Below, in pieces: positions 18,711 to 61,100 of a stretch of 64,000 bases of DNA. The notes under the pieces are model-generated. The model worked only from the letters and a program-made list of their open reading frames with translations. It was not told the DNA's origin and did not search any database. Positions within the stretch are counted from its first letter, which is position 1, and each line of letters begins with the position of its first letter. A program made the position numbers and the translations under genes. Source of the DNA: Lingula anatina (taxonomy: Eukaryota; Animalia; Brachiopoda); assembly GCA_051362555.1 (NCBI GenBank), contig CM120647.1, forward strand, positions 2,418,001 through 2,482,000, given 5' to 3'.

Positions 18711-21700
18711 CTCTTGATAAGCAACGTGATGTTGAATTTTTTTTAATCCATCATGTTTAATTTTTTGTAGGTTTTCCCAGAACAAATCCATGTTCCATGG
18801 TGGTTTATTTTAATGTTATGTCACAAAATTGGAACATTTAAAATGAGGATTGGGGAAGGAAATATTTTTCATGATATGAAATTCAAAGGAGATGCTACAA
18901 TTATCTATACACCATTGTGTTGCTAAATTGTCACTCTACATATATTTTTGTATTATAAGTTATTTTACCTTGAATCATGTCTTAGTAGAATGGGATCAAA
19001 GATCCCAGAAGATCAAATTAGATGCATTATCAAGAAAAGAAACTAATAAAATGCATATATCAAAATAATTGGAACCTAAAGTATGCTGTTACAGTATGTG
19101 AATGGTACATTTTGTCTGCATTTTAAGGATTTAATGTTATATGTGTATTAATTTGATAGTAGGTGAGACCATGACTAATGCAATTACTAAGGCGTTGAAT
19201 TTAAATAACAAAAAAAGGGGAAAGGAAATTGCGCAATGTAGGAAATCTAAGTAAGATATAAGTACAATTTATATATATTCATACATGTATCATTCTGTGG
19301 CTGAAGGGTTACTCTACATATATAAATTATGAATGCTATTTAAGAGTGTATCACATCGAGGTTAATTTGGGTGAAGTAACAAATGAGTTCAAATTTAGGG
19401 CATTTTCAGGAAAATAAACTAATAAATTTATTTATTAAGATAATTTAAACCTAGAATAGGGTAACCTTAAGGCATATATTCTATATTTCAGTGATTAAAT
19501 GGGGTTTTGGAGTTTTTTAACAGTAGGCAAAATCTGTGACTGAAACAAATTTAATACTGCAGAGTTGCTCAGTGCAATTGTAAAAAAATTGGGGGGGGGG
19601 GGATCACTCATAGAGTAGAAAATTTAAGTAATATATAACTTTGACTTATATATCTTTGTGTATAGCTGTAAGGGTTCCTCTAAACAAATCAATAAAAATG
19701 TCATGTTAATTGAATTATGTATAAGTAAAATAGGATCAGTAGTCATACTTGGTCAATTTTGAGATATTTTTAGGGAAATGAACCACTCAAGATTATTATT
19801 TATTATAGAGAACTTGAGTCTAGAAATTTCTTTTGTAGAAATATGTTTGGTAAAGTCAGTTTGAATTAAAAGGAAAGGAAACTTTTATGGAGCATCTATT
19901 TTTATGTACAGACAAAGATGGGCATATAATGAACACTGATAACACATTTCAAGGAAGATTAATGGGCCTATATTGTCTTGAAACTCATAGAAATGATAAA
20001 AAAATCAGCTTGATCAGAAATATTTGCAAAAGTTATGATATATTTTTTTTTTTTTACTTTTTTCAGCATATTTTATCCACCATTATACAGTTAACTTGAA
20101 AAGCATGTCATATTTTGCTTTAAAACTTGTGGAACTATGATTCATAGGACTAATAAAGAGATCAAGTGGAAAAATAAGCTTGATGGGTTCAGTTAATATG
20201 ATGAAGTGACTTTTTTGTATGTAAATAAGGGGTTTACCTCAGATTCAATTCTTAGGCATATGTTAATATAGTCTTATTATTGAACTAATTAGATACGTAA
20301 AAGTGTTCTTTTGATATTTTCTGTTTTTTTACAATATTCTTAGTTGATTATCTGAAAATGATGGTAAACCCATTATTGTGTAATAAAGTGTCAGTAATGG
20401 AAATAAATAAGAGGGTAAAATGAACTTACTGTAGTGATACTTACCATATTTGACCTGGATACTGCATCACCGACTAGTGACGTAATAGGCTCCACATGAG
20501 AGATGCGCATGCAGCTCAGCGTCATTCATTGCGCCGTTTCTCAGCAAAGCAGATGTGGATTTATAAGCTGCATGAAATTAATATTTCTGCAGTGTTTTGA
20601 GCTTTTTGAGTGCTTAACTATGTCACAGCATCATATTTCAAAGTAGTTGTAGTATGGACCACAGAGTGACAGATCAATGGTTCACGGGAAGGGAAATATC
20701 CCAGGGTGGGATGTGAAACCTATTCTGTCACCGACGATGATGTGGAATCCAGGTCAAATATCACTCACCTACAGTAAGTTCATTTAACCCTCTAATTCCA
20801 CATAACTGTTTAGTGACATAACAGGCTCCACATGAGACATTCAAAGTGTGGTCCAGACACAACACCTTACAATTTTTTGAAACCAGCAAATAAAGGCACA
20901 AACACTGTGTTTAAATCAACATGTATTAACTGCAAAGAACAATTGATAAACTTGTTTATCAAACAACTTGTAACAGCATATTTGATGCAAAATAGAAATT
21001 CATCTGCACAATTTGCAGGAAACAACTCTAACTGCACAAGTTGCAGTTATAAACAGGATATTTAAATGCTCAAAAGAATTCCTTCTGCACAATTTGCAGG
21101 TAACAACTGTAACTGCACAAGTTGCAGTTTAAAAAGTAAAATCAAATAAACAGTTCATAAAACAGTTCCCTGTAAATCTGAATGTCCATGTCAGACACCA
21201 GAGACAGACAAAATTGCATCTGCAAACTGGCCGTGTTGAGTTATTTTTTATCCTAATATCTAGCAAATGTGCAATCTTTAGACCAGCCAGCCATCTTCAA
21301 AATAGTGTCTAATGGCACTTTAGCACGTTTTGTTTGTGAAGATGTGTGGAGTAAATACATGTATCTCCATGTCTATACCAGCCATATTCATAATTTGCTT
21401 AATCCATCTAGATATGGTAGATTTGACTGCTTTCTTAAATGGCTTTACTATGGTGGCCCCTATTGGATATTTCGACTTTTCGACTTTTAGAGTTTTCGAC
21501 TTTTAGAGTTTGCGACTTTTAGAGTTTTCGACTTTTAGAGTTTGCGACTTTTAGAGTTTTCGACTTTTTGACTTTTCGAGTTTTTGACTTTTCGAGTTTT
21601 CGACTTTTTTACCAGTCATATGGCAACTGGCTGCGCGTAGGAAGATATTCAGAACGGAGCGCGTGCTCTGAGATGACGTCGAGGTCGAAATTTGTAAATT

Positions 21701-26212: not shown

Positions 26213-28684
26213 TGCTTGCCTTCCGCTTGCCAAATGTGCAGAAGTTCCGCAGCAAAAAGCTGTCCGCAGAAAAAAGTCAAAAACTCGAAAAGTCGCAAAC
26301 TCTAAAAGTCGCAAACTCTAAAACTCGAAAACTCTAAAAGTCGCAAACTCTAAAAGTCGAAATATCCAATAGGGGCCACCATACTTTACAGATGTTAAAA
26401 ACAATCTTGTGATATTTCCTCTCAAATGTTTGAGTCTGTTCATGTATTCCATTAAGACAGTACATAAACATAATATATCTGGTGCATATGCTGTCACTGT
26501 CATTTCACCAATGGTCTTGACTGCTTCAGTAAATCACCAAATCTAAATGTGACTTTAGACTTATTAATTGTGATGTTATATGAATGTCAATAAGGTGCAA
26601 CAATTGGGTTCTTTGACCTGTCAATAATATAGTCAATGTCACTGCTTTCTTGCTCAATTGTAAAAGATTAAGTTGTTTCACAGGTGAAAGTTTTTTAAGG
26701 TAATTCAAAAGCAAACTTGTGCCCCATATATCACATTGTTCCTTGGTAATGCAGGTCTAGAAGTAAAAACTCCTCTCATCAATCTAACCACATGAGGATG
26801 ACCACCTGCTGGACACTTATCCACCATAATAAAAGTTGCTTACCGTATATCTTGCTGTATTTAGAGCAGAATATCCAAGCTTCTCATCAAAGCAATATGG
26901 GCTAAAAATTTTACAACATCAGTTACATTTGGTGACAATGTATTAATGTTCCTCTCATTACAATATTGAATCCATCTTGAAATGTAAGATTCGTATTGCT
27001 TGACAGTTGTACCTCTCCATGAGGACATAACCAATTTGACAGCTATTGGCGAAAATGCCATATCTTCGAAACTTTCCCTGACAATACACAAGCCATTAGC
27101 TGTAACTTTGGAAGATGATTGTCCATGTTTTTGTGTGGGTGCAACAGCAATTCTTGATTCCTGGGAAGTAAAAAAAGACAAGATATTAACATATATGGCT
27201 CAATTTTGAAAACCATACTTGAGTTGTCCAATAAGGCACTACCACTATAATACTATATCCACTTGATCAAACTCAGTCTTGCTTAACATCTTTCCTATTA
27301 AAGAAAAAGGTGGAAATGCATAAGCATTCATCTGTGACCAGTCAATAGACAAGGCATCCATTTTCATAGCAAATGGGTCAGGTTCCATGAGACGTATTGA
27401 GGTAGTTGATTATTCAGCCTTGAAGCAAACAGATCCGTTTCTGGTAGATAAAACTGCTTAGTTATATCTTTAAATACTGTTGGGTGCAACTTCCATTCAA
27501 GATTATCATGATCAAGTCTACTTTCTTTATCAGTTTCTAGTTCTACATTATTTTCTGATTCAATATATGCAACTGATAGCCATATATTTTTTCCCTTGCA
27601 CCATAACCAAAATTTTCTGGCCAAGTCATTTAGTGAGGGTATTTTCCCTCCCATTCGAGCATTATATGACAAAGCAGTTGTATTATCTATACACATTTTA
27701 ATGTGAATATTTGTAAAAAGGATGGGGGGGGGGGGGGAATGCAGGGGTATTACATCAGGAGGGAACTGGTCAGCAGTTGAAAGAACTTTTCACATTAATC
27801 ATCTTGAATTACATGTATTAGCTGTATGGTTTGCTCTAAACTGCTTTGCACAAGATGAAACATCTCAGCGATTTTGATCACTTAAAAATTTTGATTTTGA
27901 TCACTTAAAAAGGATAGTAAATTGGCTATTTTGCATTAAGTAAAAAAGTGTTGAAAATGGAAATAAACTTGTTTCAGTACAGTTATCTCTTGTTTATTAC
28001 ATCTAGTAGATTGGGTTATTTGTTTTATTTTATATATATAATTTTTTTCCTTGCATGTATGAACATTTTTCTATTTCTGGCATTTACAAAGTGTGAACTT
28101 GAACTTTCATGGGTCTGAAGCCTTATATATATGTCAGTTACAATACTTACATCCATATCAAGTGTTTTGCATAATTAAAATTTGGTGCTTACTTTACTTT
28201 GCATAATGTATTATTGCAACAGAATTGCCAGTTGCCTATTTGGTGCATCATGTTTTTCTGCTTTCTTTCTGTACATTTGACAGTTTATAGTAGGTCAGAT
28301 TTATAGCTGATCCAAATACAGGAACAACAGAGAGGAGTTCAGGTCCATTGCAAAATGGGAAAACTCAACTACAATCTTTATTGAGTATAAAAATAAAATC
28401 AAATAATACTCCTGCATGGCAGCTATACACATGAGGTGAAACACACCTTCAAGACCTCCTCATATATATCTATGAATGATTGTACTCTGTGCCTTTTACT
28501 TGAAGTAGTGCCCAAGAACAATTGCTGACACCTATGCCAACTGAACTCACTGTTGAGTTGCTAAGAATGTTTAAAAATTGTATAGTGAAGGCAAAATAAT
28601 TCACTGTTTTATTAAAAACATTGTCAGACTAGAATGATTACTTGAAAATATTTTTGTATAAAGTATAAAATTTGATAAATTTTG

Positions 28685-31189: not shown

Positions 31190-31703
31190 TCTGCCTGTAG
31201 CTGAAGGGTTATGCTACAAAATGCTATTTAATATTGAGTTTTATATAAGTAATTGATGGTCAAATATCAATTGAAGTTAATTTTGAAGCATTTTCTGGAA
31301 AATAAACCAATATTTATTAAGATAATTTTCACATAGAATATGTCTTTAAGGCATGTTGGTTATATTTCAATGATTTAATAGGGTTTGGGGAATTTATTTC
31401 ACAGTAGGTGTGAGCAATGATTATTATAAGTACTGCAGGCAGTGTCTCAGTTCAATTGCCCAAAATGGGGTAAGAGAAAAGACATTATCAATAGCACATG
31501 TAGTAATTCTAAGTAAGATATAACTTTGATTTATATATCATTGTGTACCTGAAAGGGTTGCTCTAAACAACTAATGAATGTCATGTTAATTGAATTGTGG
31601 CTAAACCAGGTAGCTTCACATAATGTCTTTGTTTATAGTTAGTAATTCCTTAGAATATGTTGTATAAAGTTTAAGGAGGTAAGGTGAGCTTGTTTCTTAA
31701 TTT

Positions 31704-32193
31704 TATCAGGCTTAGAAGTTTAGCAAATACTGTTGATGTAGTTCACTTGTCAGAGGTTGTCAGAAGTCTGGGGATCTCGCAGCTCAAAGTAGACTCTAAC
31801 ACACAAATGTTCTCTATATTCAGTTTATTCAATATATTCTTCTACTTCTCAGCTCTACTCCTCTTAATACGACCTGCTCTCTTGCTCTACCTCTGTCAAC
31901 TCTACTTCTCTAGTCAAACCATCTCTTTACATAGGTTCTACACTATAATTTATGGGAGGAAATGGGGGACAATAAATTGAATCTGGGGCTACTAGGTGAC
32001 TACAATAAGACTACAAGAAAGGAAGTGTCTGATGTTCTGACTACAAGAAAGGAAGTGGCTATTGTTCTAAGCTATCTAATTGAACAGGTGAACAGGTCGT
32101 AAAGTCTGAGAGGAAGTGCCATTGCATAAACAAAGTAAAGAAATCTTGCAACTTTATGTAACTAAAGACAAATAAATAAAAGTAGTTATGATA
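31704..32193 (-). repeat. 3' LTR (490 bp)
   Basis: No differences from 41157-41646 found by eye; TATCA...TGATA termini; minus-strand AATAAA at 31824-31829. Confidence 0.95.
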
Positions 32194-32226
32194 TGTCTCC
32201 CGTGGTCGACAAAAATTGTGCCTCAA

Positions 32227-32742
32227 ATTTTTGTTTTGGTTTGAACTTATACAGATATGTGTACAAGAAATTCATTTAAATCAAAAGAAACATTATATAA
32301 TATCCCTAAATATTTATGAAGCAAATGCGTACATGTCCACGAACACAAATATATGGTTTGAACTTATACAAATATATTTATATACCCACAAGTGCTTTAT
32401 CTAAATCTAAATAAATGTACCATTAATATGTATGCAGACACTACATACACATCTACAAAAGAAATCTTGCAACTTTATGTAACTAAAGACAAATAAATAT
32501 TTTTGTTTTGGTTTGAACTTATACAGATATGTGTACAAGAAATTCATTTAAATCAAAAGAAACATTATATAATATCCCTAAATATTTATGAAGCAAATGC
32601 GTACATGTCCACGAACACAAATATATGGTTTGAACTTATACAAATATATTTATATACCCACAAGTGCTTTATCTAAATCTAAATAAATGTACCATTAATA
32701 TGTATGCAGACACTACATACACATCTACAAAAGAAATCTTGC
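32227..32742. repeat. Tandem duplication (272-bp period) in the env-LTR spacer, with an embedded LTR fragment
   Basis: 32227-32470 equals 32499-32742; the junction 32458-32499 equals LTR sequence at ~32138-32179. Confidence 0.9.
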
Positions 32743-33324
32743 TAACTTACAGGTTATAATTATGGTCACATTGGACATGTTGGTTACTTAAAATCGCAAG
32801 CTAGTAAATATACAATTAAAACTATGACTATATAAAAGGCTATTGATAAATGTTACGGTACTAATAAATTAACAAAATACATTATAACATGATACCGAAC
32901 TCATGTTTAATTCAGTGTTCACCCATATTACACATATATTTAGTTACATATACTTTAATTAGGTTTAATATTTAATTAGGTCATTATTTTATTCTAATGC
33001 CCTTCATGCTTTGATGTTGTACCACATCTTGTCAAATATATATGATTATAACTCTATACATAATACCTTATATCCCAACACCATACATATTTAATAATAT
33101 CATATATTGTCAAACATATATTTATTATTCTAATTATTAAACCTTATGTTTCAATACCTATGACAACTCTTTATTTTTTCAATTATGTTGTAAACAGTGC
33201 AATATGATTATTTGTCTCATTATTGGTAAATAATTCTTACATTCATATCTACTTTCACACGCAAGTGAACAAGTCTTTCTTATTGTTTTGCATATGTATT
33301 CTTTTTCTTTGCGCAATATGGCTA

Positions 33325-35675
33325 TTATAGGTAGACTAATCTTTTGTGGTGTATCACCACTAAATATACATCAAACGGTACTTTGGTTAATCTTTTTAGC
33401 TTTAGATAGTTCCACAGTGGTAAGTAAACAGTGACAGGCAATTGGATGTCAGAATTTGGTTTTGCATGGCAGGTTTGTACTAGGACATCATCTCCCCATT
33501 GAATGATTATCTTGGGACGGAGTCCTTTGACTAATGTTATATCTTTAACTAATGGAGCTCCCCTAACAGTAATTTCATTCGGACAAGATTGGATTTTTGT
33601 CAGTGGAATTATTTCATTCATTTGATGGTTTGATACTTCGATTGCCAAACAGTTTTTCAACTTTCTATTTCTGCATCGTCTCCATAGAATTATGGACAGC
33701 ACTAGCATCAAAGTGGCCATAAAATACACAGTGGGTGTAATCTCAGCAGTCAGGATTTCATACATGTCGAATTTTGTAGTTTCAGGTTGAGTTGTGGTGG
33801 TGAGCTTGTAGACAAAGATAGGGGCAGGCGTTGCCCTTGCTTGCCCTATTGTTAGCATAGTAGCTCCCAAGATTTTTAGTTTGTATGCCAAAGAAAAGGT
33901 GAAAAGTATGCCTAAACAAGCTAAACCTAAGGCTACATATGCAACTATTTCTTTCAGAGCCATATCAGGTTTGGGTAATTGTAAGTCTCCAGATAATAGT
34001 GGTTCGGTGAGCGATTGAAAGATTGTTTCTCCCTTTTTGGCAGCCTTCATTGCCTCTTTGAGATCCATTTGTATTTCCGAATCCTGATTAACAAACTTTG
34101 AAAAATTATGTGCAAATAATTTTATTGTGGGGATGTCCACAATTGGGGGAGTAGAGAATGATGAATGGCTTAAAAGGTGAGAAAAATTTTGGCTATCGAA
34201 AAAATGTTGAATTACTGCTAAGTTTATGGGGTGTAACACTTCTACGTCACTGGATGTTTCGCAAATCTGTTGGGGTGGCAGAAAAAAGGTTGAATGCTTA
34301 ATAGCGCATGAGCAAGGCACAGTCATAATGCAAAAATCGCACCCTGTAACTGTGGTGTTTGTTGCACATTCAAAAGTGAGATTGTAAATTTTACTGATAA
34401 TGATGTGATCCTTTCCCAGACGCTTAACTGATGGGGATGCACTATTGGGAAGGAATTTAAAATGACATATTTCCTTAACTTTGGGTTTATTTTCTTCTAG
34501 AATGGCCTGAATACAATCATAATTAACCGCGGGTTTTAATTTGGTAGCTTTACATAATCTTATTTTGTTTCCCGTACACTCATCAAGAAAATCTCTGCTA
34601 AAAGTTATCGGTGCCTTGGCCGAGGAAGACTTCCCAAAATATTCTGGAATATTGGTTAGAAGCGAGGAATGGTTACTTGTTGCATTGAACGGTATTTTAA
34701 AGACTTCGGTTTCAAACACTTGGAAACTGTTATGAGGTGCAAAAATGGGAATTTTGAGTGTAACGATAATGGAATCATTCATTTTGTTAGTAGCAAATTT
34801 TGCATATTGGTAATAGTATTGCATGTCCTGTTGAATAGAATAATGCTTTCCATGTTGTTGCAGGGCTGTCTGAATATGTTTTAGTGTGCTAGCCAAAACT
34901 TGGGGAGGGAATAGTACTGGTGAAAGCTTGCCATGTGTTAAGTCGTTTAGTCCTATAACTGTGCTACTTATCTCTTGGCTAAGTTTAGCAGTAACTGTAC
35001 TTAGGTGCATCAGTTTAGTGATCAACTTAAAATTGAACTCCATTTCATTTTCCACTACTTTCAGGTCTCCACCTATCATAACACCTAAATGGTGGTTAGC
35101 CGCTATTTCCTTAACTATATTTGTTAGTCTCAGATTTTGGTGATGGAATATCGAACCAAACTGGCGTGAAAATTTAGAGAAGGTTGTTAGGGCTTTTTGT
35201 TGTCTTGCTTGCAAGATATTCATATGATCGATAACCTTGTTGACTTGGCTTTCGGTTGCAACTCCGAACAAAGATTTCGCTATGTTACCCACAAATGGAA
35301 GAACTGAACGCTTTTCTCTACTCAATTGGCGACTAGGGGTCTTGAAAATCATGTCAACTTTGTGGTGGAAGGCTCTCAACTCTGCAGCAGTCTGACTGTA
35401 GAGCCTTTTTCCTTCTGAAATGGCCCTTTCCACTAATACACATGTTTTGTCGTCCACACGCCCTTCACAGTCTAGGTCATACGCTGACTCTGACGGAATG
35501 TCAGGTATGTGGATCGTCATTGAATGCAGCCAATAGTCGCTTACAATCCTAACAGTTCCCTTATCATGCAACATCAGTCCGTAATTCATAAGGGCTCTAT
35601 CTGCTAGGGTAACAGGCACAGTAGCTAACATCATCAGGATAATGAGTATGAGGTTGATGTCTCTTGTTTGGGTCA
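33325..35675 (-). CDS. env: Envelope/fusion glycoprotein (baculovirus-F/errantivirus-like class I fusion protein) with C-terminal extension
   Basis: Hydrophobic signal (LILIILMMLATVPVTLA), furin site REKR then fusion-peptide-like SVLPFVGNIAKSLFGVATE, heptad region, Cys-rich ectodomain, N-glycosylation sequons, TM IVAYVALGLACLGILFTFSLA, second TM VYFMATLMLVLSIILW. The annotated GTG start overlaps a splice acceptor. Confidence 0.88.
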
Positions 35676-35708
35676 CTGAAGGGGAAGAAAGAAAGGGGAG
35701 AGATTAGC
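35676..35708 (-). promoter_or_regulatory. env splice acceptor (branch point, polypyrimidine tract, CAG)
   Basis: Minus strand reads gCTAATctctcccctttctttcttccccttCAG|TGACCCAA. Confidence 0.8.
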
Positions 35709-36002
35709 AATTGCTTGCCCATCTTCTGCCATAGACCAGCTATAAAGAAGTTAGGCCAGAAAAAGAAGTTAGGGTAGGCGCAACCTCAAACTTGATAAAT
35801 AAACACTCACAAGTGATTACCTATGAACAATGGACTACCTTATATTAGTTACAGAACAACACCTTAGCCATTTACTGACAACAACTGAGCTAACACAACT
35901 CGTTCTCAAAACTGCCGTTAGACCAAAATTTCCTATATAACAGAGAAAAAGGTAAAATAAAAGCATGAGTCACTCATGTCCTTGCACCGGCACAATTCAC
36001 AG

Positions 36003-39000
36003 CTAAACCTTTTGTTTGCGAGTTACTAATTTCCTGCGTCTTGCCTTTCCTGACATAGTTTTCTTTGCATGAAATTCAGAGATCAATATTTGTGGAACCT
36101 TCTCTGCCAAAACCCAATCTGATCCCTTTTTATGCTTCCATTTCACTCTGTACCACAGCACACTATTATTACCTCTAGCACCTTTCAGGATGCATTGAGC
36201 TTCATCACCTAGGGGTACCCCATTTTGATTAGGACTATCAGGAATATCACTGGATAGCATCTCCTTATCTACCCTTTCTGGATTTCTATCGTCCTCTGCC
36301 TGCTCGACTGGATAATCAGGTTCAGTTGCTGGTGGGGTTTCATTGTCAAATGGGGTGCGAATTATTGGGTCTGAGTAAGGTTTAAGACGATTGGCATTTA
36401 CTGGGTGTTTGAGCAGTTTATTGGTTGAACATTCCCTTAATTTGTAGGTGGCTTTCCCAATGATCTTGACTATGTAATACGGTCCTTTGAATTTTGGGGT
36501 AATTTTTGATGTTAGTCCCACTGGAGTACTTTCATTTCTTACCATGACCCTATCTGTTACGGCGTATGTAGGTTCTTTGGCCTTTTTGTTGTGTTGTCTA
36601 ATGTTCTGGGACTGTGAATTCAATTTAATTTGTGCAGCAGCTTTCCTACCTTTATTCAGAGAGTCTAGTTTTTGTGTAATGTAGTCTTCCATATTTTTGG
36701 GCAGGTCATTTTGGGGTAACAACTCGTAGTCTAAAGGGGTTGTCATTTCTTTGCCAAATAACAGAAAATATGGAGAATATCCTGTACCTTCAGCAGGTGA
36801 GCTCCTGTAGGCCATTAATATAGATTCTACATGGTTTGCCCAATCTGATTGGTCCTTTTTGCACAATGCCCGTAGGGACTGCCAAATAAATCCGTTGAAT
36901 CTTTCACAGACTGCATTGGTCTGAGGGTGGTAACTGGCCGTGTAATGTTTTTCTACATCAAAAATGTCACAAATGGCCTGAACTAATTTTGATCTAAAAT
37001 TTTGGCCTCTGTCCGTAATAATTTCGAAAGGAGCACCATATCTTGTGAAAATTTGAGAGTACAAAATTTCCGCTATTTCTTTAGCTTCTTGTGTTTTGAG
37101 TGGAAATGCTTCTGGCCATCGCGAAAATGAATCTACTGCCAAAAGAATGTATTTATGGCCAGATTTTGAAGGGGTTATTGGGCCTAAAATGTCAAGATGC
37201 CAGGTGCTGAAGACATCTTTGATGGGTAGGGGTTGCAAGGGTGCTGCTTGAATTCGATAACTTCTCTTTACTCTTTGGCAAACTTCACATGATTTTACAT
37301 ACCGCTTTACATCTCTAGGCATTTTGGGCCAGTAGTATTTTAGTCGGAGTTTCTCTAAACATTTGCGATAGCCTGGATGACAAGCTCCTGCTCTAACGTC
37401 ATGATATGCTCTCAAAACTCTCCGCCTATGCTGTTTGGGTACCACTAATTGTTCTAATACTGTGTCATCACCAGCCTTATGCCTTCTAGTACAGCGATGT
37501 TTCCTGTATAATACTTGATCTCTAAGGAAGAATATTTCTTGAATGCTTTTTCCTTTCTCCTCCAGACTACTAGGGGACTCTCCTAGTTTCTCAATCATGG
37601 GGGCTAAGTCTTTCGAGGACCGTTGCATCTGTACAAGGTTGTTTAAATTCACTTCCTTGGGATTATGTTCACTAATACTAGCTATTACCGTTGCAGTCTT
37701 GGGTTTCCTATAAACAAACCTTGTAGCTTCCCATTCACTCTTCTGAAAACCAACCTTACATGCATGAACTACACTGACTTCTTCCCGCTTTTGATCCTTT
37801 TCACCATCGTTAACCTCATCCTGTCTAGACAAGCAATCCACTGGATTCAGGCTTCCCTTTTTGTAAACCACCGTGTACTGTAAACCTTGAGTTTCCAAAG
37901 ACCATCTATTCAGTTTCTGATTGGACGACTGCTTGGACTCTAGCCATTTTAAGGGCATGTGATCTGTATATATAGTGAAATGACGGTTTTGTAAAAACTG
38001 GCGATATTCCCTTATGCCTTCAATTAAAGCTAAGCATTCTTTTTCCGTAACCCCATAGTTTCTTTCAGCATTTCTTAAAGTCCTAGAACCATAAGCAATA
38101 GCATGCTCTCGTCCGTCTTCTCCTACCTGACTTAACATGTAGCCTATAGCAAAATCTGAGGCGTCAGTTGTCAAATTAAACTCTTTATTCATATCAGGAA
38201 AAGCAAGTATGGGAGCGTTTGCTAGAGCTGACTTCAAATCATTAAATGCTTGATCACACTCATCAGTCCATTGGAAGTCCGTAGTTTTCTTAGTTAGGGA
38301 ACACAGAGGGGCAGCTATCTTGGCGTAACCTGTGACATATCGCCTGTAGTAATTACACATACCCAAAAAGCTACGCACCTGAGTACGAGTTTTAGGGATG
38401 GCAATCTTCTTAACGGCCTCTACCTTAGATGCATCAACCGAAATCCCGTCCTTGGAAATGAAATGACCTAGGAAAGCTACCCTTTTGGTGGCTAGTTTAC
38501 ACTTTGAGGTTTTGACAGAAAGATTGGCGTCTTGCAGCCTCTGAAATACTAACTCCAGGTGCTCTAGATGTTCTTCAAAGGTTTTGGAAAAGATCAGGAT
38601 ATCATCAATATAGCATGCTACCATGCGCCAGTTTAGATCTTTCAGAATACGAGCCATAGTGGACTGATAAAAACTCGCAGCGTTGCGAAGGCCAAAAGCT
38701 AAGCGTTTGAACTGAAAGTGCCCATGGTGAGTTACAAATGCAGATTTATGCCTGGTTTCCTCAGCTAGAGGCAGTTGCCAATAACCACTGAAGAGATCCA
38801 AAGAAGAAAAGAATTTAGCTTGAGATTCTGAAAGAATGTCCAGTACATCAGTAAGACGTGGTAAAGGAAAGTGAATAGGGGACGTGACCTTGTTGAGTCG
38901 CCTGTAATCAATAGCGAATCTCATGGAGCCATCTTTTTTTTTCACTAACACGACCGGACTAGCCCACTCACTGGTAGATTCCTCTATTATGCCATTTTTT

Positions 39001-40076
39001 AACATTTCGTCAGTCTGTCTCTCTACTTCGGCCTTCTGTTCAGGGGTTTGCCTATAGTGTCTTTGCCTCTGGGGAGGGGCATTTCCTGTGTCAATGACAT
39101 GACCTTTAACTCTACCTTCACCTACCTCAGACAAATTAGAGGCAAAAACTTCTCTGTACTTCCCTATAAGTATAAGGAGCTGTTCCTTTTGTGACTGAGT
39201 TAAATCTGCCTCATCTAGGCAAATACCAGTTTCTTGACCATGTTTTAAATACTGGGCTTTAGTCTCTACATCACTAACCTGCACTTGTTCATGAGAAGGG
39301 GTTGCTGACATAACGCTAGGTGGCCGTGGGTGAGTAAGAGATACAAGATTGCTTTCTTCTATTGGGTAAGCCTTAGCCATTAATTTATCATAGGGAATGA
39401 AAATGGTTTGGTTAGTGGGATTGTAGATGCGGCATGCACTCGTACCTTTGTCTATTTTCACCACACATCTGGCAACCATGTAACTATTTTCGATGGGTTC
39501 TAAAAGCAGATTTTCAGCGGTTGAGTTGTTAACTCCTGAAATTTTCACTGGTATTAATGCTTCTCTACCTGGGTCAATTCTACATTGTTGTACAGCACGC
39601 ACCAGGCCTAAATGATCAGGTTTGTTTGTCTTTGGGGCGTCATGGCTTTGGAAAGTAATAGTTTCATTTTTCACATCAAACTTAGCACCATTATTCCTAA
39701 GAAAATCTAACCCCAAAATAAGATTTCTCGGTAGCTGTTGAAATACATAAAAATTTTGGGAAAAGGGCTTTTTACCAATTTGAAAGTCTACTGTAATACA
39801 TCCCTTCACTTTATGCAATTCTCCCCCTACACCAGCTACTGCAACCAAATCAGCATTTTTTATTTTGAAATTTTGATTTTTCAACTGCCATAAGAGATTT
39901 TCTGAAATACATGAAACTGTAGCCCCAGTGTCTATCATTGCTTTTACCATTTTGTCACCTATCTCGACATCTATCAAATTGTGGTCAACGCGATCACCCA
40001 CAAAAATTACTCCTAAATTGCCAATTTTCTGTAAACTTTTGCTACCTATATTCTTAGTCATATTGCGCTCGCACCC
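36003..40076 (-). CDS. pol: Pol polyprotein: protease, RT, RNase H, integrase, chromodomain-like tail (in frame with gag; first ATG at 40061)
   Basis: IDTGA protease; SEWASPVVLVKKKDG, DYRRLN and YIDD in RT; TDAS and EKECLA in RNase H; H..H/CEVC, LDILGP, ITDRG and CERFN in integrase; KFKGPY; WYRVKWK...SDWV. Confidence 0.97.
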   Translation of the reverse strand, partial: GCERNMTKNIGSKSLQKIGNLGVIFVGDRVDHNLIDVEIGDKMVKAMIDTGATVSCISENLLWQLKNQNFKIKNADLVAVAGVGGELHKVKGCITVDFQIGKKPFSQNFYVFQQLPRNLILGLDFLRNNGAKFDVKNETITFQSHDAPKTNKPDHLGLVRAVQQCRIDPGREALIPVKISGVNNSTAENLLLEPIENSYMVARCVVKIDKGTSACRIYNPTNQTIFIPYDKLMAKAYPIEESNLVSLTHPRPPSVMSATPSHEQVQVSDVETKAQYLKHGQETGICLDEADLTQSQKEQLLILIGKYREVFASNLSEVGEGRVKGHVIDTGNAPPQRQRHYRQTPEQKAEVERQTDEMLKNGIIEESTSEWASPVVLVKKKDGSMRFAIDYRRLNKVTSPIHFPLPRLTDVLDILSESQAKFFSSLDLFSGYWQLPLAEETRHKSAFVTHHGHFQFKRLAFGLRNAASFYQSTMARILKDLNWRMVACYIDDILIFSKTFEEHLEHLELVFQRLQDANLSVKTSKCKLATKRVAFLGHFISKDGISVDASKVEAVKKIAIPKTRTQVRSFLGMCNYYRRYVTGYAKIAAPLCSLTKKTTDFQWTDECDQAFNDLKSALANAPILAFPDMNKEFNLTTDASDFAIGYMLSQVGEDGREHAIAYGSRTLRNAERNYGVTEKECLALIEGIREYRQFLQNRHFTIYTDHMPLKWLESKQSSNQKLNRWSLETQGLQYTVVYKKGSLNPVDCLSRQDEVNDGEKDQKREEVSVVHACKVGFQKSEWEATRFVYRKPKTATVIASISEHNPKEVNLNNLVQMQRSSKDLAPMIEKLGESPSSLEEKGKSIQEIFFLRDQVLYRKHRCTRRHKAGDDTVLEQLVVPKQHRRRVLRAYHDVRAGACHPGYRKCLEKLRLKYYWPKMPRDVKRYVKSCEVCQRVKRSYRIQAAPLQPLPIKDVFSTWHLDILGPITPSKSGHKYILLAVDSFSRWPEAFPLKTQEAKEIAEILYSQIFTRYGAPFEIITDRGQNFRSKLVQAICDIFDVEKHYTASYHPQTNAVCERFNGFIWQSLRALCKKDQSDWANHVESILMAYRSSPAEGTGYSPYFLLFGKEMTTPLDYELLPQNDLPKNMEDYITQKLDSLNKGRKAAAQIKLNSQSQNIRQHNKKAKEPTYAVTDRVMVRNESTPVGLTSKITPKFKGPYYIVKIIGKATYKLRECSTNKLLKHPVNANRLKPYSDPIIRTPFDNETPPATEPDYPVEQAEDDRNPERVDKEMLSSDIPDSPNQNGVPLGDEAQCILKGARGNNSVLWYRVKWKHKKGSDWVLAEKVPQILISEFHAKKTMSGKARRRKLVTRKQKV

Positions 40077-41129
40077 CTATTGTTTTATAGTCCTGCACAC
40101 AGTTGCTAGGTGACCTAAGCGGCCGCATTTATAACAAGTTTTATCTTTTGCAAAACAAGAAGAAGGAGAATGACTCGTCCACTTACCACACGTATTGCAC
40201 TTGCGCTTCTCACTTTCTCTCTCTCTGCTCCTTTCTCTACTTCTTTGCCTAAATTGACTACGGTTGTCCTCCCTTGCCTGAAAAGAAACTTTTCTATCAT
40301 TAGTATTGGTTGTTACAGCTTGAACACTTGCACACTTAGTGACCAGCTGGCTCAACTGGCTCATTATATCCTTGTGCATTCCCGCAAACTGTGACATGAC
40401 ACTGGCCATGTTCACAACTTCAGTCTGGGCCACTGTTGGTGCTGGCTCCTGACTTGGGCTGCATGCAGAGGCAGCGTCTGCCAGAGTGGCAGCCTCCTGC
40501 AAGTCTCTCAAGTTTTGGGGGTTTTTCATGATTATGGCTGTCCTTATAGAAGGATCAAGTCCATTCACAACAGCTGCAACTATGTGTTGCTCCGGCAATC
40601 CGACTTCTCTTCCCATTTTTGTCATTTTTGCTAGGTAGTCTCTGATTTTTGTATTTCCTTGCTGACATGAAAACAATTTTGCTGTCCTTGTTCTTATGGT
40701 GGCTGGGCTAGGTCCATACCTTGTCAAAAATTGCCTTTTTAAGGCTTCAAAGTCAGCTTTGGTATCACCATCCAAAGTTGAATACCAGGTCTTGGCATTA
40801 TCCATTAATAAATAAGCAAAATGAGACAGTTTCATTTGCAGGTTATACTGCATTACCTGGCAGTACTCTTCATATCTGCCCATCCATTCCTCTGCATTTT
40901 CACTCTCATCTCCTCGGAAAGGAAATGGAGAGAGGTGTTGTGGGAGGGATAAAATAACCTGATGTCCTGGTTGCCTTGGTCCCTCTGCTGCTTGTGATGG
41001 TGGTGGTGGTGGTGGAGGAGGTGGTGTTGGTGGTGCTCTGCTACTTACATTTACTGCAGATGGCCCTGGCCTTTCTGCCTCACGGGTTGGCTCCTCTTCC
41101 TGGGCTCTGGGTGATCTTCTGGTGGCCAT
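40077..41129 (-). CDS. gag: Gag (capsid plus two zinc knuckles)
   Basis: 350 aa; Pro-rich N-terminus; PFRGDESENAEEW..RYE and AKTWY..L...F..LK..FL..Y capsid pattern; CNTCGKWTSHSPSSC and CYKCGRLGHLATVC. Confidence 0.93.
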   Translation of the reverse strand: MATRRSPRAQEEEPTREAERPGPSAVNVSSRAPPTPPPPPPPPPSQAAEGPRQPGHQVILSLPQHLSPFPFRGDESENAEEWMGRYEEYCQVMQYNLQMKLSHFAYLLMDNAKTWYSTLDGDTKADFEALKRQFLTRYGPSPATIRTRTAKLFSCQQGNTKIRDYLAKMTKMGREVGLPEQHIVAAVVNGLDPSIRTAIIMKNPQNLRDLQEAATLADAASACSPSQEPAPTVAQTEVVNMASVMSQFAGMHKDIMSQLSQLVTKCASVQAVTTNTNDRKVSFQAREDNRSQFRQRSRERSRERESEKRKCNTCGKWTSHSPSSCFAKDKTCYKCGRLGHLATVCRTIKQ

Positions 41130-41137
41130 ATTTTTGC

Positions 41138-41155
41138 CCTTTTGGTTCTCCGCCA
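41138..41155 (-). promoter_or_regulatory. Primer binding site
   Basis: TGGCGGAGAACC... begins 1 nt after the 5' LTR; TGG is complementary to tRNA CCA. Cognate tRNA not identified. Confidence 0.7.
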
Positions 41156-41156
41156 G

Positions 41157-41646
41157 TATCAGGCTTAGAAGTTTAGCAAATACTGTTGATGTAGTTCACT
41201 TGTCAGAGGTTGTCAGAAGTCTGGGGATCTCGCAGCTCAAAGTAGACTCTAACACACAAATGTTCTCTATATTCAGTTTATTCAATATATTCTTCTACTT
41301 CTCAGCTCTACTCCTCTTAATACGACCTGCTCTCTTGCTCTACCTCTGTCAACTCTACTTCTCTAGTCAAACCATCTCTTTACATAGGTTCTACACTATA
41401 ATTTATGGGAGGAAATGGGGGACAATAAATTGAATCTGGGGCTACTAGGTGACTACAATAAGACTACAAGAAAGGAAGTGTCTGATGTTCTGACTACAAG
41501 AAAGGAAGTGGCTATTGTTCTAAGCTATCTAATTGAACAGGTGAACAGGTCGTAAAGTCTGAGAGGAAGTGCCATTGCATAAACAAAGTAAAGAAATCTT
41601 GCAACTTTATGTAACTAAAGACAAATAAATAAAAGTAGTTATGATA
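41157..41646 (-). repeat. 5' LTR (490 bp)
   Basis: Matches 31704-32193; followed by the PBS and the gag ATG 28 nt downstream. Confidence 0.95.
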
Positions 41647-43412
41647 ATTTGATTAAGAAGTTACAATGTAAGTTCAGGAATCCTTTGCCATGGTTTGAGA
41701 TTAAAGAGTGGGAGTTCCCACAGATTGTCAGAATGTACCTGAGCATGCAATGAGTGGACATTAAATGATTGAAACTGGTTATTGTTGTCAGCCTTGGATC
41801 TCCTAATAGCGATTTACACTATTAAATATTTTGACCACGAATCTGGAAAGTAGTTTAACATGTTATCCAACCTAAAAGTTAACAACGGTGTCCATGTTGA
41901 GAGCCTGTTTGTAATTTTTGTTCAGTGCTAACTTCGGGCTGGTTTGTATATACAGGGTAAGACCATGCAGCCTTAACAAGATGTGGCCAGACTAGGTAAT
42001 CCTGTGTAACATTGTACATTGTAAAGTGACAACTCTACAATTGATGAGTTCACCAAGACTTAGAAGAGGAAAATCTCCGAGACAATTCGCTTTAAATAAA
42101 AATGAGCCAGGAGCAATTCCAGTCCCTAATTGAAAATGTGCAAGTCTTAAACAATCAGAGTGACCAAGATCACTGCGATCAACAAAGATGACATTGACCC
42201 CAGAGGACTCTTGATAGAACAGGAAAATGAATTCAAAAGGGAGTTTTAACTATCTCTGAATGTAGATTCATAGTATGAAGTTTTAAGTGGCCATCTATAC
42301 TCCATCAAGAGACCAACCAGGACCAGCGCCATCTTTTCACATACAGTATATAATTACCATCACCATACCAAAGGAAGTGTGATTGAGGGCAACCAACTAG
42401 TAAAACTCTCGACAGAGTATGGCAGAGTTACAGTGGCAGGTTGAGGGGGGTTCAATTTCTGAAAAAAAATCACACCATGTGATCCCCTCTTGAAATGAAA
42501 ATTTTCACTATCTGAATCACAGTTCTAAACTGTCCAGAATGGCAGCGCTTGCCCTCTAAAATACCAACATTTTTCAGAGTCCTTCAGCGGCCCTGAATCC
42601 CAGGCAAAGGGGGGAAGGTTGGCTTTGCATCCTTGAACCCCCCCCTTTAAATAATCCTGGATCCACCCCTGGAATTATATACACACAATGGACAATAGAA
42701 CTGTCACCCCCTGAATCAGAGTAATCAAAGTCAGCAGATTTTGAGTAGTTATAATGCCTGGTCTACTTATAATGTGACTAATGAGTATAAAACCGCTGTG
42801 CCATGAAATTGTCTTTTTTTTTTTTTTTTGAAATATGATGTTAATAAAATGATGCCAGAAGAATATCATTCCACAGTCATTTATCTCCCCCAAAGGATTG
42901 GTTCAGAAGGGGTGACACTTCTATTGTCCATTGTGTGTATGGTCCCAAATGCGTGGTGATATCCAAAATCAATTAGATGATGAGCAATGTGCAAGGTGTG
43001 TATCCCGCGACAGCAACATGCAGGATATGGTGAAATGCCCATGTCAGTAGTCATTACTTAATCAAATGATTGGAGTGGATCTCATTGGCCCGTTTGTGGA
43101 ATCTTCAAAAGAAATATATTGCCTCAATTTAATTGATTACCTGTCCAGATGGGTGGAAAGTTACCCCATTCCCAACAAGACCTCTGTAGTGAACCATTAA
43201 TAGTGCTAATATATAAGATTTGCATATATGAGATTTTCAAATTTAATTTAAAATGTATCTACAATTAAGTTTTAATTTATTCGGATGTATATAGGCATGG
43301 CATGGAAGTTAATTTGACATGCTAATTAAGATCAAGCATTAAAGAGGCAACAGAGACACGGATAGATATACAGAGAGAGAGAGAGAGAGTAGGCTGGACA
43401 GACAGACTTTTA

Positions 43413-44933
43413 CACTAGTCGACATTTGCTATGGATCATATTTAATGGACTTTTTTTTACCTTTGTATATTTTTTGGGTCTCCAAAATGAAGTTGCACAA
43501 CCATATGTATTAGTCATTGATTTTGTTGTTGTTTTGGTTTAATGCACACGAGTAAAAACTTCAAAGCTGGTTCCTCAGCTCACATTCAAGAAGCTGTGTT
43601 CCCAGTACACAAACATGCTTGGTCAGTGGAGTGTTGTTGATGGCACAACCAATTCTCCTGATGTGCTTTTGATTGCCAAATTTCAAAATGCCTCCAACAA
43701 GACTAAGAAGTCATTTACCACCAGCAGAACTGAATTGGGCTATTAGGTTACTCCAGGATGGCCAGACACAGTGCCATGTAGCCACTCTCCTTGGTATGTC
43801 CCAAAGTGTGATATAAGGTACTGGAGGCATGGGCAGGCAGACCACTGTGGTGGTCGCCAGATACAGACAACACCTCAGCAAGACTGCTACTTGACCTTCC
43901 AAGGACGCCTGGATTGCTTGTTTCCAGCCAATTTGCTCCAGAATGAGTTTTAGAATGCAACAGGGGTACATGTGTCAACTCAGCTGGTCCGGAGATGTCT
44001 CCATGAAGCACAGTTGAGGGCCAGAAGTCCATCTGTTTGCACTGCTTTGACACGGCAACACAGACAAGTGTGTCTACAGTTTGCAAGGCATCACAGGTGG
44101 TGGATGATCCAGCAGTGGTCATCTGTGCTGTTCACAAATGAGTCAATGTTTTGCTTACACTTTCTGGATCGACGCAGGAGGGAGTGTGGAGACGGCCCAG
44201 GGAGCACAACACTCAGCCAAACATCTTCCAACATGATTGGTTTGGAGGACCATCAGTTCTCGTATGGGGTGGAATTTCAATCCATGGGTGTACTGACCTT
44301 CATGGGATCCAGAATGGGACTCTCACTGGTCTCAGGTATCGAGATGAGTTCATTGCCCCTATAGCCCATCCCTAGGTGCTGTTGGTGACAACTTCATCTA
44401 ATGGACAAAAATGCTCTTCCCTATCGAGCCAACGTTGGAGCAGGAAGGAAATACTGGTCACCACACCTCAGTTTGATTGAGCATGTTTGGGATTTGCTCC
44501 AGAACCGCAGTCGAGCTCGGCAGAATGCTCCCATACAATTCGGCAACTGGAGGATGCTTTGGTGGAAGAGTGGGACCAGATCACTGAACAGCAGTTATTC
44601 TGTTTTATTCAGAGCATGCACAGAAGTTGTGTCACGGTTTTTCAGCTAAATGGTGGTCATACACACTACTAGGGAAATTTTGCATCCAATTTCTTGCTGA
44701 CATGAGACATTTTACTGATGTTTGGCATAAAGTGTTTTTTAATGTGAATGTTTGTTGTGCTCTCCTGAAGTTTTTTTTGGTGGCGATTATGTTCTTTTGC
44801 AATTTGATCTTTTTTCTCACTTTACACTGAAATTGCTGAAATTTGGTCTCGTTTAATATTGTGAAGCAAACCAGTCATGATTGTCAAAATTTCATTAGCA
44901 AAAGACATGATCCCTAGCAAATGTTGACTAGTG
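43413..44933 (+). mobile_element. Tc1-family DNA transposon with pseudogenised transposase (~43688-44672)
   Basis: TA-flanked TIRs CACTAGTC(G/A)ACATTTGCTA(T/G)GGATCAT; WSSVLFTNES, VLVWGGIS, SPHLSLIEHVWD, GGHTHY* across frameshifts. Confidence 0.92.
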
Positions 44934-58100: not shown

Positions 58101-61100
58101 GAGAACATTGCACTAAAACCATGGGCTTGGAATTCTCTCCAAACGTGGACTGACCTGCCATCTCAGGCGATATTATCCTGCACAAACCTACCAAAAAGCA
58201 TTCTGCAACATGTCTACGGGTCCTAATTTGACCATCAAAGGCATACAAGAAATACCCTGATTCTTCAGCAAAACCAACTTGTTCCTAGTGATGGTTGACC
58301 AAGTTCTGGTAGTTCTGGGATCACTGAACCCAGCATTCTCAACTGATACCTCATTCCATCTGCAAGAGAGGACTTCGGGGGTGATCCAGGCTTCATCATG
58401 ACAGCACACTTGCAAACAGTTATCATGTGGTGAATGATTTGTTGCAGAAACCCAATTTCCGGAGGCTGGAGAAACCATGTTTAAATCCAGATAATAAACC
58501 TACTGAGCACCCGTGGCATGAATTGAAGTGTGCAATCCAAAGGAGAGCCAAATTCTAAATAGTCTGGACCAATTCCGCTAAGCTTTCTAGGAAACAATGG
58601 GCAACATTCCACAAAACAGAATTGTTACCCTTGTTGAAGGCAGTGGCGCCGTCTACATGAGATGATTACAGCACGCGGTAAACATACACGCTAATAGACA
58701 CGCGACCTTAACGAGCACACCCTAATGCTAAATTTGTGCAAATTTGGTGACACTTGGTGGTGTCAATTCAATTTAATGGGCATTTCTTTACCTCCGTTGA
58801 AATGACAGTGGAACATCGGATTTGAGGGGGTACATGTAATAAATGTGAATTAATGGTATTAAATTTTGATATCTTCATCGCTAGTTTGTATTTTCTTTAT
58901 CACTAATCATGTTAGTTATGGTATCTGGCATAAAAATCCCCATCAATAGCAATAAACCCCTGCGGTGTGATCATTTATAAATAAAAGCACATGAAGCTGG
59001 GGGTGGGACAACCTTTTTGACCAATGTTAATTCTCATGCCAAAAAGAAAATGTTGGAAACATCGTCATACCTGCCACAGACACTGCTTTGTTACCGCTTG
59101 CGTCCTCGCCGTTCCATATGTCATACCTGGTAGAGTAGTACGATATAGAAAAAATAGCAACCCGTAGCAAAATGAAACGTTTCCAGCAACATTGCAACAA
59201 CAAGTTTGCAAGAAAAAATCTTGCTCCTAATTTACAGCAATATTGCAGCAAATTTGCCTGCTAAGGGAACGAACGGAAGATAAAATGGCATTCATTTTAG
59301 TCCTTATCATTTTTTTTTTTCATTTCAAATTATGATTGTAAGCAACATCCATTTACAAGAGAAGCATAACTGGATGTTTAAACTATCAGCACCGAACTGG
59401 TTAGCTGACTTGTGTTGTACGGGTGTTATTAAAACATTGGGAAGACAGAAAAAAACTCGTTCAAAGCAAGGAGCAAGGGTGCACTTACCCAGTAAAGAGC
59501 ATCGCATGATCAAACGTGGGTAAAGTGTTTCTAGTACTATCTTCGTTAATCCAGTCTGTAAAGTTCTTTAATGCAAGCTTGGCGTTCACTAAAGGTCTTG
59601 GTGTCGCGTCGCTCTTAATGTCTGTTGATTCAGTCCAGATGGAGGACATCGGGTCCTGGAGTGGAAATATATAGACTACAGCAATACGTTAGATCACAGT
59701 GTTATATGTGACTTGTCCTGGAATGGAAATATATAGACTACAGCAATACGTTATATCAGTGTTATATGTGACTTGTCCTGGAGTGGAAATATATAGACTA
59801 CAGCAATACGTTAGATCACAGTGTTATATGTGACTTGTCCTGGAGCAACACGTTATATCACAGTGTTTTATTTCGTGTTACTTGCTTCAAGAGAAATAAA
59901 GCATTGAAAGTTCATATGAAGGCTTAACCGCTAAAATTGGTCGGTTTAATTCTTAATGCTTTTTTCTTCAAAAGGCTGAGTTAAATTCAGGGGCGGATCC
60001 AGGCTTATTTGAAGGGGGTCCGGAACGACAGGCCTCGGATGCAAGGCCGACCATAGCCCCTTTGGCCTGGGGTTCGGGGCCTGCTCAAGGGCCCCGAAAA
60101 GATTTTGGCGTTTTGAAGGGTAAACGGTGTCCTTTGGTATGGTCTAGAACTATGATTCAGCTTCAGCTGGTCAAAATTCTAATTTCAAGAGGGGAATATT
60201 AGTGTGATATATTTTTCAGAAACCGAAGTCCCACCTGCCCCCCCCCCCCCCACACACACATACACACTCTAAATTCGCCACTAAAATTTGTGACATAACA
60301 GCGGGTTAAGCGGATGCATACTAATTTAAGTACGAGGCAGGTAATACAGGGTTGTGGTACAGGCCCCATTGAAGAACAATTTAACTAAACCAGTTTATAT
60401 CCAAACTCTTACCGTTGCTATACAAAGACCAACCAGCCGGACGTATATTTCGAATGGCGCCTCGTCCATACTTTGATAACGCAGATCAACCTGAAATAAG
60501 GAAAACATTGCATATGTCTTAATCTCTGAGAATTAATATTTATTTTGATTGGGGTCATAATGCAACATTTTATTGTTTAAGATTGCCACAATGCTATCGT
60601 TAGTTATCAAATATTGAACACATGTTATTTACCAACATGTACTCACATCATTCTACATTTCAACATTTTGTAATATCTATCATTAACATAGCAGTACTAT
60701 GAACATATATTTGTGAAAACTTGCCCCGTTCGCTACATGGGCGAAATAATATCGTATCTTTTCAATGGCTGCTTTCTGCCTGTCCTCGTGTCCGGTCGTC
60801 GTATTGTACCACCTGAGAGTACAGAAACGACAAGCAATGATATTTCAGACATTTTGATCTTTGTCCACTATCATCTAAAAACGGCGCAGTTGCAACGAAG
60901 GTCGACATGAAGGTCTACATCAAATGTTGAAAAACACTGAATAAAGCAAATTATGCAGTAAGGAGCTGTCTCAATATTAACATATACAGATTATAGTGGA
61001 ACACACGCGGATCGGCGTACCTCTGATGGGACTGTCGCTAAATCCCAGCAGTTTAACAGATTAACACGCTCTCTGGCATTAAGTTGAATACAGACAAGCT

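Follow-up and report, generated by a model that had tools for sequence, protein, structure and literature searches.

A young errantivirus-like element in the Lingula window

The window analysed here, 64,000 nucleotides of the genome of the brachiopod Lingula anatina (assembly GCA_051362555.1, contig CM120647.1, positions 2,418,001 to 2,482,000 of the forward strand), carries a retroelement whose gag and pol frames are separated by a single in-frame UAG codon, and the way in which Gag-Pol may be made across this codon is the subject of the present work. All features of the element lie on the minus strand and are numbered within the window. The element is bounded by two long terminal repeats (LTRs) of 490 nt, the 5′ LTR at 41157-41646 and the 3′ LTR at 31704-32193, which are 100% identical in pairwise comparison and are flanked by a 4-nt target-site duplication read from the sequence (41647-41650 and 31700-31703). 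One base past the 5′ LTR, a stretch starting with TGG (41138-41155) is a putative primer-binding site (no tRNA was matched to it), and upstream of the 3′ LTR, at the place of a polypurine tract, there is only a short purine-rich run. The gag gene (40080-41129) codes for 350 residues from ATG 41129, with capsid and zinc knuckles, within a frame of 372 residues from stop to stop (41195-40077); the UAG itself occupies 40077-40079 and is followed by a pol frame of 1357 residues (36003-40076), free of internal stops. Pfam places Retrotrans_gag and a zinc knuckle 5′ of the UAG, and protease, reverse transcriptase (RT), RNase H and integrase 3′ of it. A third open reading frame (ORF; 33325-35703, 792 residues from stop to stop) is env-like and of F type by homology: it is 50% identical to P0271 and 25% identical to the env of L303, and the ORFs of P0271, P0272 and L303 are Baculo_F (PF12259); the window protein itself gave no match in Pfam or in the PDB. 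RefSeq holds a model from L. anatina for a 98% identical protein.

Because the LTRs are identical, a 4-nt duplication flanks them and three frames are open, the insertion is young and otherwise intact. Metaviridae are defined as LTR-flanked elements with a capsid/nucleocapsid gag and a pol ordered protease, RT, RNase H, integrase (PMC7879559), and the LTRs, gag and pol order of the window element are those of this family (Ty3/gypsy). With an F-type env predicted downstream of integrase, it is by sequence a Ty3/gypsy element resembling errantiviruses, as broadly understood in an eLife survey of that group (PMC13524379). The entry for Lingula in the survey reads 'No intact copies', whereas the element at 31704-41646 has all three frames open. 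The A+T-rich region of 1.1 kb between env and the 3′ LTR contains a 251-nt tandem duplication, 99% identical (32227-32477 and 32499-32749).

The UAG between gag and pol is inherited

The initial annotation had placed gag and pol in one frame across a single UAG, and this is what the minus strand reads (AAA CAA TAG GGG TGC GAG CGC AAT ATG ACT); the ATG at 40061 is, as had been stated, in frame, being codon 6 past the stop, and the pol frame itself opens at 40076. An assembly error does not account for the UAG: the site is spanned, with no alternative letter listed, by contigs of X1, X8 and X5, runs that come from three studies (the window itself may derive from X1 or X5). The UAG is also retained in a contig of a fourth study (X20), which represents a 91%-identical copy with 13 differences in 152 nt; one of these, at 40072, changes the codon after GGG from TGC to TAC, which is the spacer variant of the relatives L084 and L088. 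A separate 5-kb contig of X8 matches 40061-40100 in 34 of 40 positions and nothing else within 39500-40800, which points to local conservation of the junction; the positions of its six differences are unlisted.

More distant relatives were taken from two assemblies, G001 and G002. Among loci with a readable junction, five (L081, L082, L084, L087 and L088) come closest to the window element in RT-RNase H identity (50-53%), and a sixth, L241 (the same locus as L302), was added by searching the same two assemblies, junction classes being assigned by script. These six are the best protease-region matches (E ≤2e-25; the next at 1e-13), and each has one in-frame stop, UAG in four and UGA in two, lying 6-16 codons past the zinc knuckle. 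Two of them are damaged elsewhere, L084 in pol and L088 in gag. We infer that their contigs are animal host DNA within contaminated assemblies. The initial annotation had asked whether sibling copies keep the stop, and they do: it is present in the X20 copy and in all six relatives, with no sense codon among the nearest DNA. Judged by sequence, gag ends at an inherited stop, the UAG, in a clade of Ty3/gypsy elements that carry env, and the inheritance of this stop across the X20 copy and the six relatives supports the proposal of a programmed readthrough.

Stop context, spacer and local hairpins

The junctions are UAG-GGG-UGC-G in the window and L241, UAG-GGG-UAC-G in L084 and L088, UAG-GAU in L087, UGA-CAG in L081 and UGA-CGC in L082. 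Thus UAG-GGG-URC-G is common to the window and three of the four UAG relatives, and the five UAG elements are invariant at +4 (G), +7 (U), +12 (G) and +13 (C); an A stands at -1 in six of the seven elements. These letters stay fixed while the length of the peptide from the stop to the catalytic Asp ranges between 45 and 71 residues. In the window the stop is followed by the 8-nt spacer GGGUGCGA (40069-40076), the first 7 nt of which fit the GGGURCG of L084, L088 and L241, so that UAG GGGUGCGA combines the UAG-G context with the purine-rich 8-nt spacer of type III readthrough signals. In the accessible text of PMC3159437, UAG-GGG-UAC is the benyvirus context and xxA-stop-CGx-xxx-xxG the tobravirus context, and the junction of L082 fits the latter.

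In all four UAG relatives a hairpin is predicted from exactly +12, after an 8-nt spacer, with z-scores against mononucleotide shuffles of -3.0 (L084), -2.0 (L087), -5.0 (L088) and -2.9 (L241); the hairpin of L087 is not significant with dinucleotide shuffles and other windows. All 8 pairs of the relatives' stem are kept in three sequences, with two two-sided changes, a result above that of slid controls. Of the five UAG elements, the window element alone lacks a local hairpin. The initial annotation had seen no convincing pseudoknot by eye, and in fact each of 200 shuffles of the 150 nt 3′ of the stop folds better than the sequence itself (z +2.43); no stable local hairpin was found in the window, nor, since a local first stem is missing, a compact H-type pseudoknot at +12, with tools that do not model pseudoknots. 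A local stem between +5 and +90 was considered and dropped (z +0.9).

A candidate long-range stem and its relation to a predicted splice

We searched the whole element for partners of the junction, with five query windows and with the start at +12 taken from the relatives. For the 10 nt at 40068-40059 the element contains a single perfect complement, at 33320-33311, four bases past the env stop, and only 78 of 7790 10-mers have a perfect partner anywhere in it. Extended, this gives three predicted arms on the 5′ side. Arm B (40055-40068), which starts at nt +12 and contains the ATG at 40061-40059, would pair with 33324-33311 through 10 bp, one mismatch and 3 bp; arm C (40042-40050) would pair with 33334-33326 in 9 of 9 positions; and arm A (40149-40167), upstream of the stop, would pair with 33292-33274 in 17 of 19. 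In nested order, arms C, B and A would find their partners within a distal patch of about 60 nt at the env stop (33274-33334). Between 40068-40042 and 33334-33311, 6.7 kb apart, there are 10 + 3 + 9 Watson-Crick pairs, that is, 22 bp in 27 nt.

The score of this 27-nt arm, 32, was matched by none of 1102 control windows (strict Watson-Crick), and the cofolding gain is -32.4 kcal/mol compared with -8.1 ± 3.7 over 230 windows. With the junction fixed, a nested triple of helices of at least 9 bp arose in 1 of 600 shuffles. In a loose duplex scan, with GU pairs and large loops allowed, the distal patch (-28.7) did not stand out from the background (-24.7 ± 3.3). Complementarity between stop-proximal and 3′ distal sequence, the mark of a long-range signal, is present above chance; it is unlikely to be accidental, and selection for it, like its role, is a matter of prediction. 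On these computed figures we consider the pairing to be probably real, and whether it acts as a stimulator of readthrough to be close to evenly balanced.

Two other complementarities were seen in the region. At 33425-33417, near the end of env, 9 nt perfectly complement the splice donor at 40189-40181; this pairing crosses the nested helices and may be due to chance. Arm B has a second complement, a partial one, at 33207-33196, and this stretch is complementary to 40201-40193 too.

A splice is predicted from 40187 to 35675 (minus strand), which would run from the first gag zinc knuckle into env and would give a capsid-Env fusion. The donor-like G|GTAAGT lies in the first knuckle (40181-40187), with the exon ending at 40187 in agreement with the gag-env joint of P0121; the acceptor-like AG (35677-35676) on the env side follows an almost pure pyrimidine tract. 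The RefSeq models P0121 and P0271 (Lingula) and P0272 (Saccostrea) all join env at the same knuckle, and phase-1 donors are found there in L084 and L088; in four of the six relatives donor-like sites were not found. Because this predicted splice removes all three 5′ arms, the helix would be confined to full-length, unspliced RNA.

Distribution of the in-frame stop

A quick tree and a FastTree tree, built without reference elements and evaluated by SH-like support rather than bootstrap, unite in one set (SH-like 99) the window element, the stop elements, three long-branched elements with a -1 frame and about 100 database Pol proteins. Env homologues are present in the contigs of L087, L088, L083 and L092. 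Another, at L304:1047-3278, lies upstream of gag, probably because the assembly is circularly permuted or because the homologue belongs to a neighbouring copy. No extra member of the clade was found in a family search of 201 genomes or in five further assemblies.

Among the metagenome matches listed (79 loci), 4 have one in-frame stop, 18 a -1 frame, 9 a single ORF, 1 a +1 frame and 1 four stops; 18 are unclassified and 28 lack the protease motif. Most of these loci are not on the tree, where the four with one in-frame stop between gag and pol are gypsy elements outside the clade of the window element, namely L176 (UGA-CUA), L179 (UGA-CAA), L183 (UGA-GCC) and L212 (UAG-GUC); L216 may be a further case. 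Among viral contigs, a single-protein query gave no match and an alignment query gave 80 distant loci; L006-L080, of 25-32% identity, are excluded from all counts.

A profile-free search of representatives returned 2616 Gag homologues; a knuckle is present in 136 of the best 150, most of which end 5-14 residues past it, an end that does not discriminate between readthrough and frameshift. A word-search with Gag gave no match. A scan for the junction motif gave 6 matches, in which gag or pol context was absent and which we take as chance.

How Gag-Pol may be produced

Judging from the sequence, low-frequency readthrough of the UAG, giving Gag-Pol, is likely. Most ribosomes would terminate at the UAG, yielding Gag; a few, slowed by a stem at the mRNA entry site, would decode the UAG with a near-cognate tRNA and continue into pol, which would set the ratio of the two products. 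The final steps, including the cleavage of Gag-Pol by the protease, would follow known retroelement biology. The 8-nt spacer and an RNA stem from nt +12 would promote the event. In the relatives this stem would be the local hairpin, and in the window it would be formed by 40068-40042 with 33334-33311 at the env stop, clamped by 40167-40149 with 33292-33274. We put forward, tentatively, a fuller proposal: a widespread, env-carrying clade of animal Ty3/gypsy elements may use readthrough in the style of murine leukaemia virus (MLV), and in the window element the 3′ half of the stem may have moved 6.7 kb away, to the env stop, so that Pol would be made only from complete, unspliced RNA.

Separate production of Pol seems improbable, whether through re-initiation at ATG 40061, through internal initiation there, or through an internal promoter lying within the junction. 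This ATG lies 15 nt past the stop, has an A at -3 and is unchanged in the X20 copy, and in Tca2 the gag-UGA-pol junction reportedly harboured a minor promoter and gave no readthrough in a yeast reporter (PMC2194720). Retention of the ATG, however, could follow from its place in arm B, and re-initiation there, which the initial annotation had offered as the alternative, is weakened by the relatives: the first Met is codon 6 in the window, 10 in L241, 13 in L087, 27 in L081, 49 in L084 and 56 in L088, and in L082 the stretch from the stop to the catalytic Asp contains none. Moreover, 24 AUGs lie between those of gag and pol, and separate initiation leaves unexplained both the kept frame and the fixed letters from +4 to +13. 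Even less probable is a Gag-Pol made from a spliced RNA that skips the stop by joining the donor at 40187 to an acceptor where pol begins. A consensus donor does stand 108 nt before the stop, with similar phase-1 donors in L084 and L088, and several in-phase AGs precede the catalytic Asp; yet the 19 nt counted for each of these AGs include no more than 10 pyrimidines, compared with the near-pure tract at the env acceptor, the AG of the UAG itself is out of phase, the RefSeq models link the donor to env and not to pol, and no donor-like site was found in four of the six relatives. We give least credence to the view that a dead element with a single ORF has acquired the TAG by nonsense mutation, or that RNA editing turns this codon into a sense codon. 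Single-ORF members of the clade exist (P0064 and P0089), but the LTRs of the window element are identical and its frames otherwise open, and the stop is kept in the 91%-identical copy, while six distant relatives have a stop at the corresponding site, in the form of two different stop codons.

A possible, though not favoured, alternative concerns the stimulator alone and is a sub-case of readthrough, our estimate for it being its share of all outcomes: readthrough would be real and driven by the context or by an unseen structure, and the distant complementarity would be due to chance or would serve intron retention, packaging or strand transfer. Arm A, 20 nt past the donor and 70 nt upstream of the stop, would presumably be opened by translating ribosomes, and nested triples arise somewhere in 13-24% of whole-element shuffles. 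Conversely, the helix starts exactly at +12, a position fixed beforehand by the hairpins of the relatives, and with the same two letters; the window element is, of the five UAG elements, the one with no local hairpin; and type III contexts are reported, in the text available from PMC13517186, to require structure.

Several observations weigh against readthrough stimulated by a stem from +12, as a local hairpin in the relatives and over long range in the window. The covariation of the relatives' stem fails a shuffle control (98 of 500, n = 3), L082 is without a stem (z +0.5) and that of L081 is weak. The arm of the long-range helix is equalled or beaten by 1 of 1101 windows at 30 nt and by 3 of 1099 at 40 nt, a nested triple occurs somewhere in 19-36 of 150 whole-element shuffles (13-24%), and the cut-offs for these tests were set after the helix had been seen. 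In the X20 copy, which covers the 5′ side only, there is 1 change among the 22 paired positions, in arm C, and there are 7 among the 55 unpaired ones (p 0.27). A long-range partner was found in none of L302-L305, of which only L303 and L304 include the env end. No RNA read matches fully over the junction, and partial reads number 0, 4 and 1 in X11, X14 and X12, respectively. The six relatives probably represent a single other host, since G001 and G002 are related assemblies. Pol is in the -1 frame in L090-L092, three basal, long-branched loci of the same supported set, so the mode of recoding has switched within the group, and P0064 and P0089 are single Gag-Pol ORFs, so the stop is common in the clade but not universal.

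Relation to known readthrough systems

Readthrough between gag and pol is a trait of gamma- and epsilonretroviruses. The same geometry of spacer and stem in an invertebrate, errantivirus-like clade would mean that it arose or persists outside Retroviridae, and, if readthrough holds, stops of this kind should not count as damage when intact copies are scored. If the long-range stem is also real, a switch of the tombusvirus kind would operate in a retroelement over about twice the reported distance, and the synthesis of Pol would be tied to the completeness and the splicing state of the genome, as proposed for plant RNA viruses.

The closest known counterpart is Moloney MLV, the gag-pol readthrough of which is described, in the parts of PMC13517186 and PMC3159437 available, as type III: UAG GGR NGU, an 8-nt spacer and, at +12, an H-type pseudoknot. 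The likeness extends to a UAG between the knuckle and the protease, to UAG-GGR, to a G at spacer positions 1 and 5, and to a predicted structure from +12. The comparison with MLV made in the initial annotation is valid as regards the spacer and a stem at +12 but does not extend to the compact pseudoknot, none being found locally; the window element is, moreover, a Ty3/gypsy element and not a retrovirus, with hairpins in its relatives and a predicted 6.7-kb helix of its own. In carnation Italian ringspot virus, readthrough needs the pairing of a proximal element with a 3′ distal one (PRTE-DRTE; PMC3234231, as far as its available text goes). This tombusvirus signal shares with the window the UAG-GG context and the 3′ distal partner. 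It differs in that it is proven and acts in a plant RNA virus, with the bulge of a local stem-loop pairing over ~3.5 kb, whereas in the window the entire stem would be long-range, over 6.7 kb, and is predicted.

Among Ty3/gypsy elements, Tj1, Tcry1 and Tosmo1-3 of fission yeasts have a conserved in-frame stop between gag and pol that has been read as programmed readthrough (bioRxiv 10.1101/2022.12.06.519325). In the accessible part of that preprint they resemble the window element in having a single such stop, and differ from it in being fungal, in their UGA-CU context and in that neither env nor a downstream structure is named for them. In order (gag-pol-env), LTRs, F-type env and lophotrochozoan host, the window element resembles the 'ancient errantiviruses' of PMC13524379, and none of the terms 'read-through', 'readthrough' and 'frameshift' was found in the main text and supplements of that survey, apart from its figures and long table cells. 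As far as these partly available sources go, gag-pol readthrough is already known for MLV and for fission-yeast Ty3/gypsy elements, and long-range stimulation for tombusviruses. In the literature searched we found no report of readthrough for animal errantiviruses, although annotations of the Repbase type and Gao et al. (2003), which lay outside the search, may hold animal cases; nor did we find a long-range readthrough signal described for any retroelement.

Other features of the window

A dispersed repeat family of four to six copies is scattered within 1250-31600. Two arrays of 8-nt units, at 21436-21627 and 26256-26383, are inverted with respect to each other and 4.7 kb apart, and are possibly the ends of a DNA transposon. 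A frame of 136 residues at 43954-44364 resembles part of a Tc1/mariner transposase and may be a fragment of one. Finally, a 271-nt inverted repeat pair at 57360-59028 encloses a second pair.

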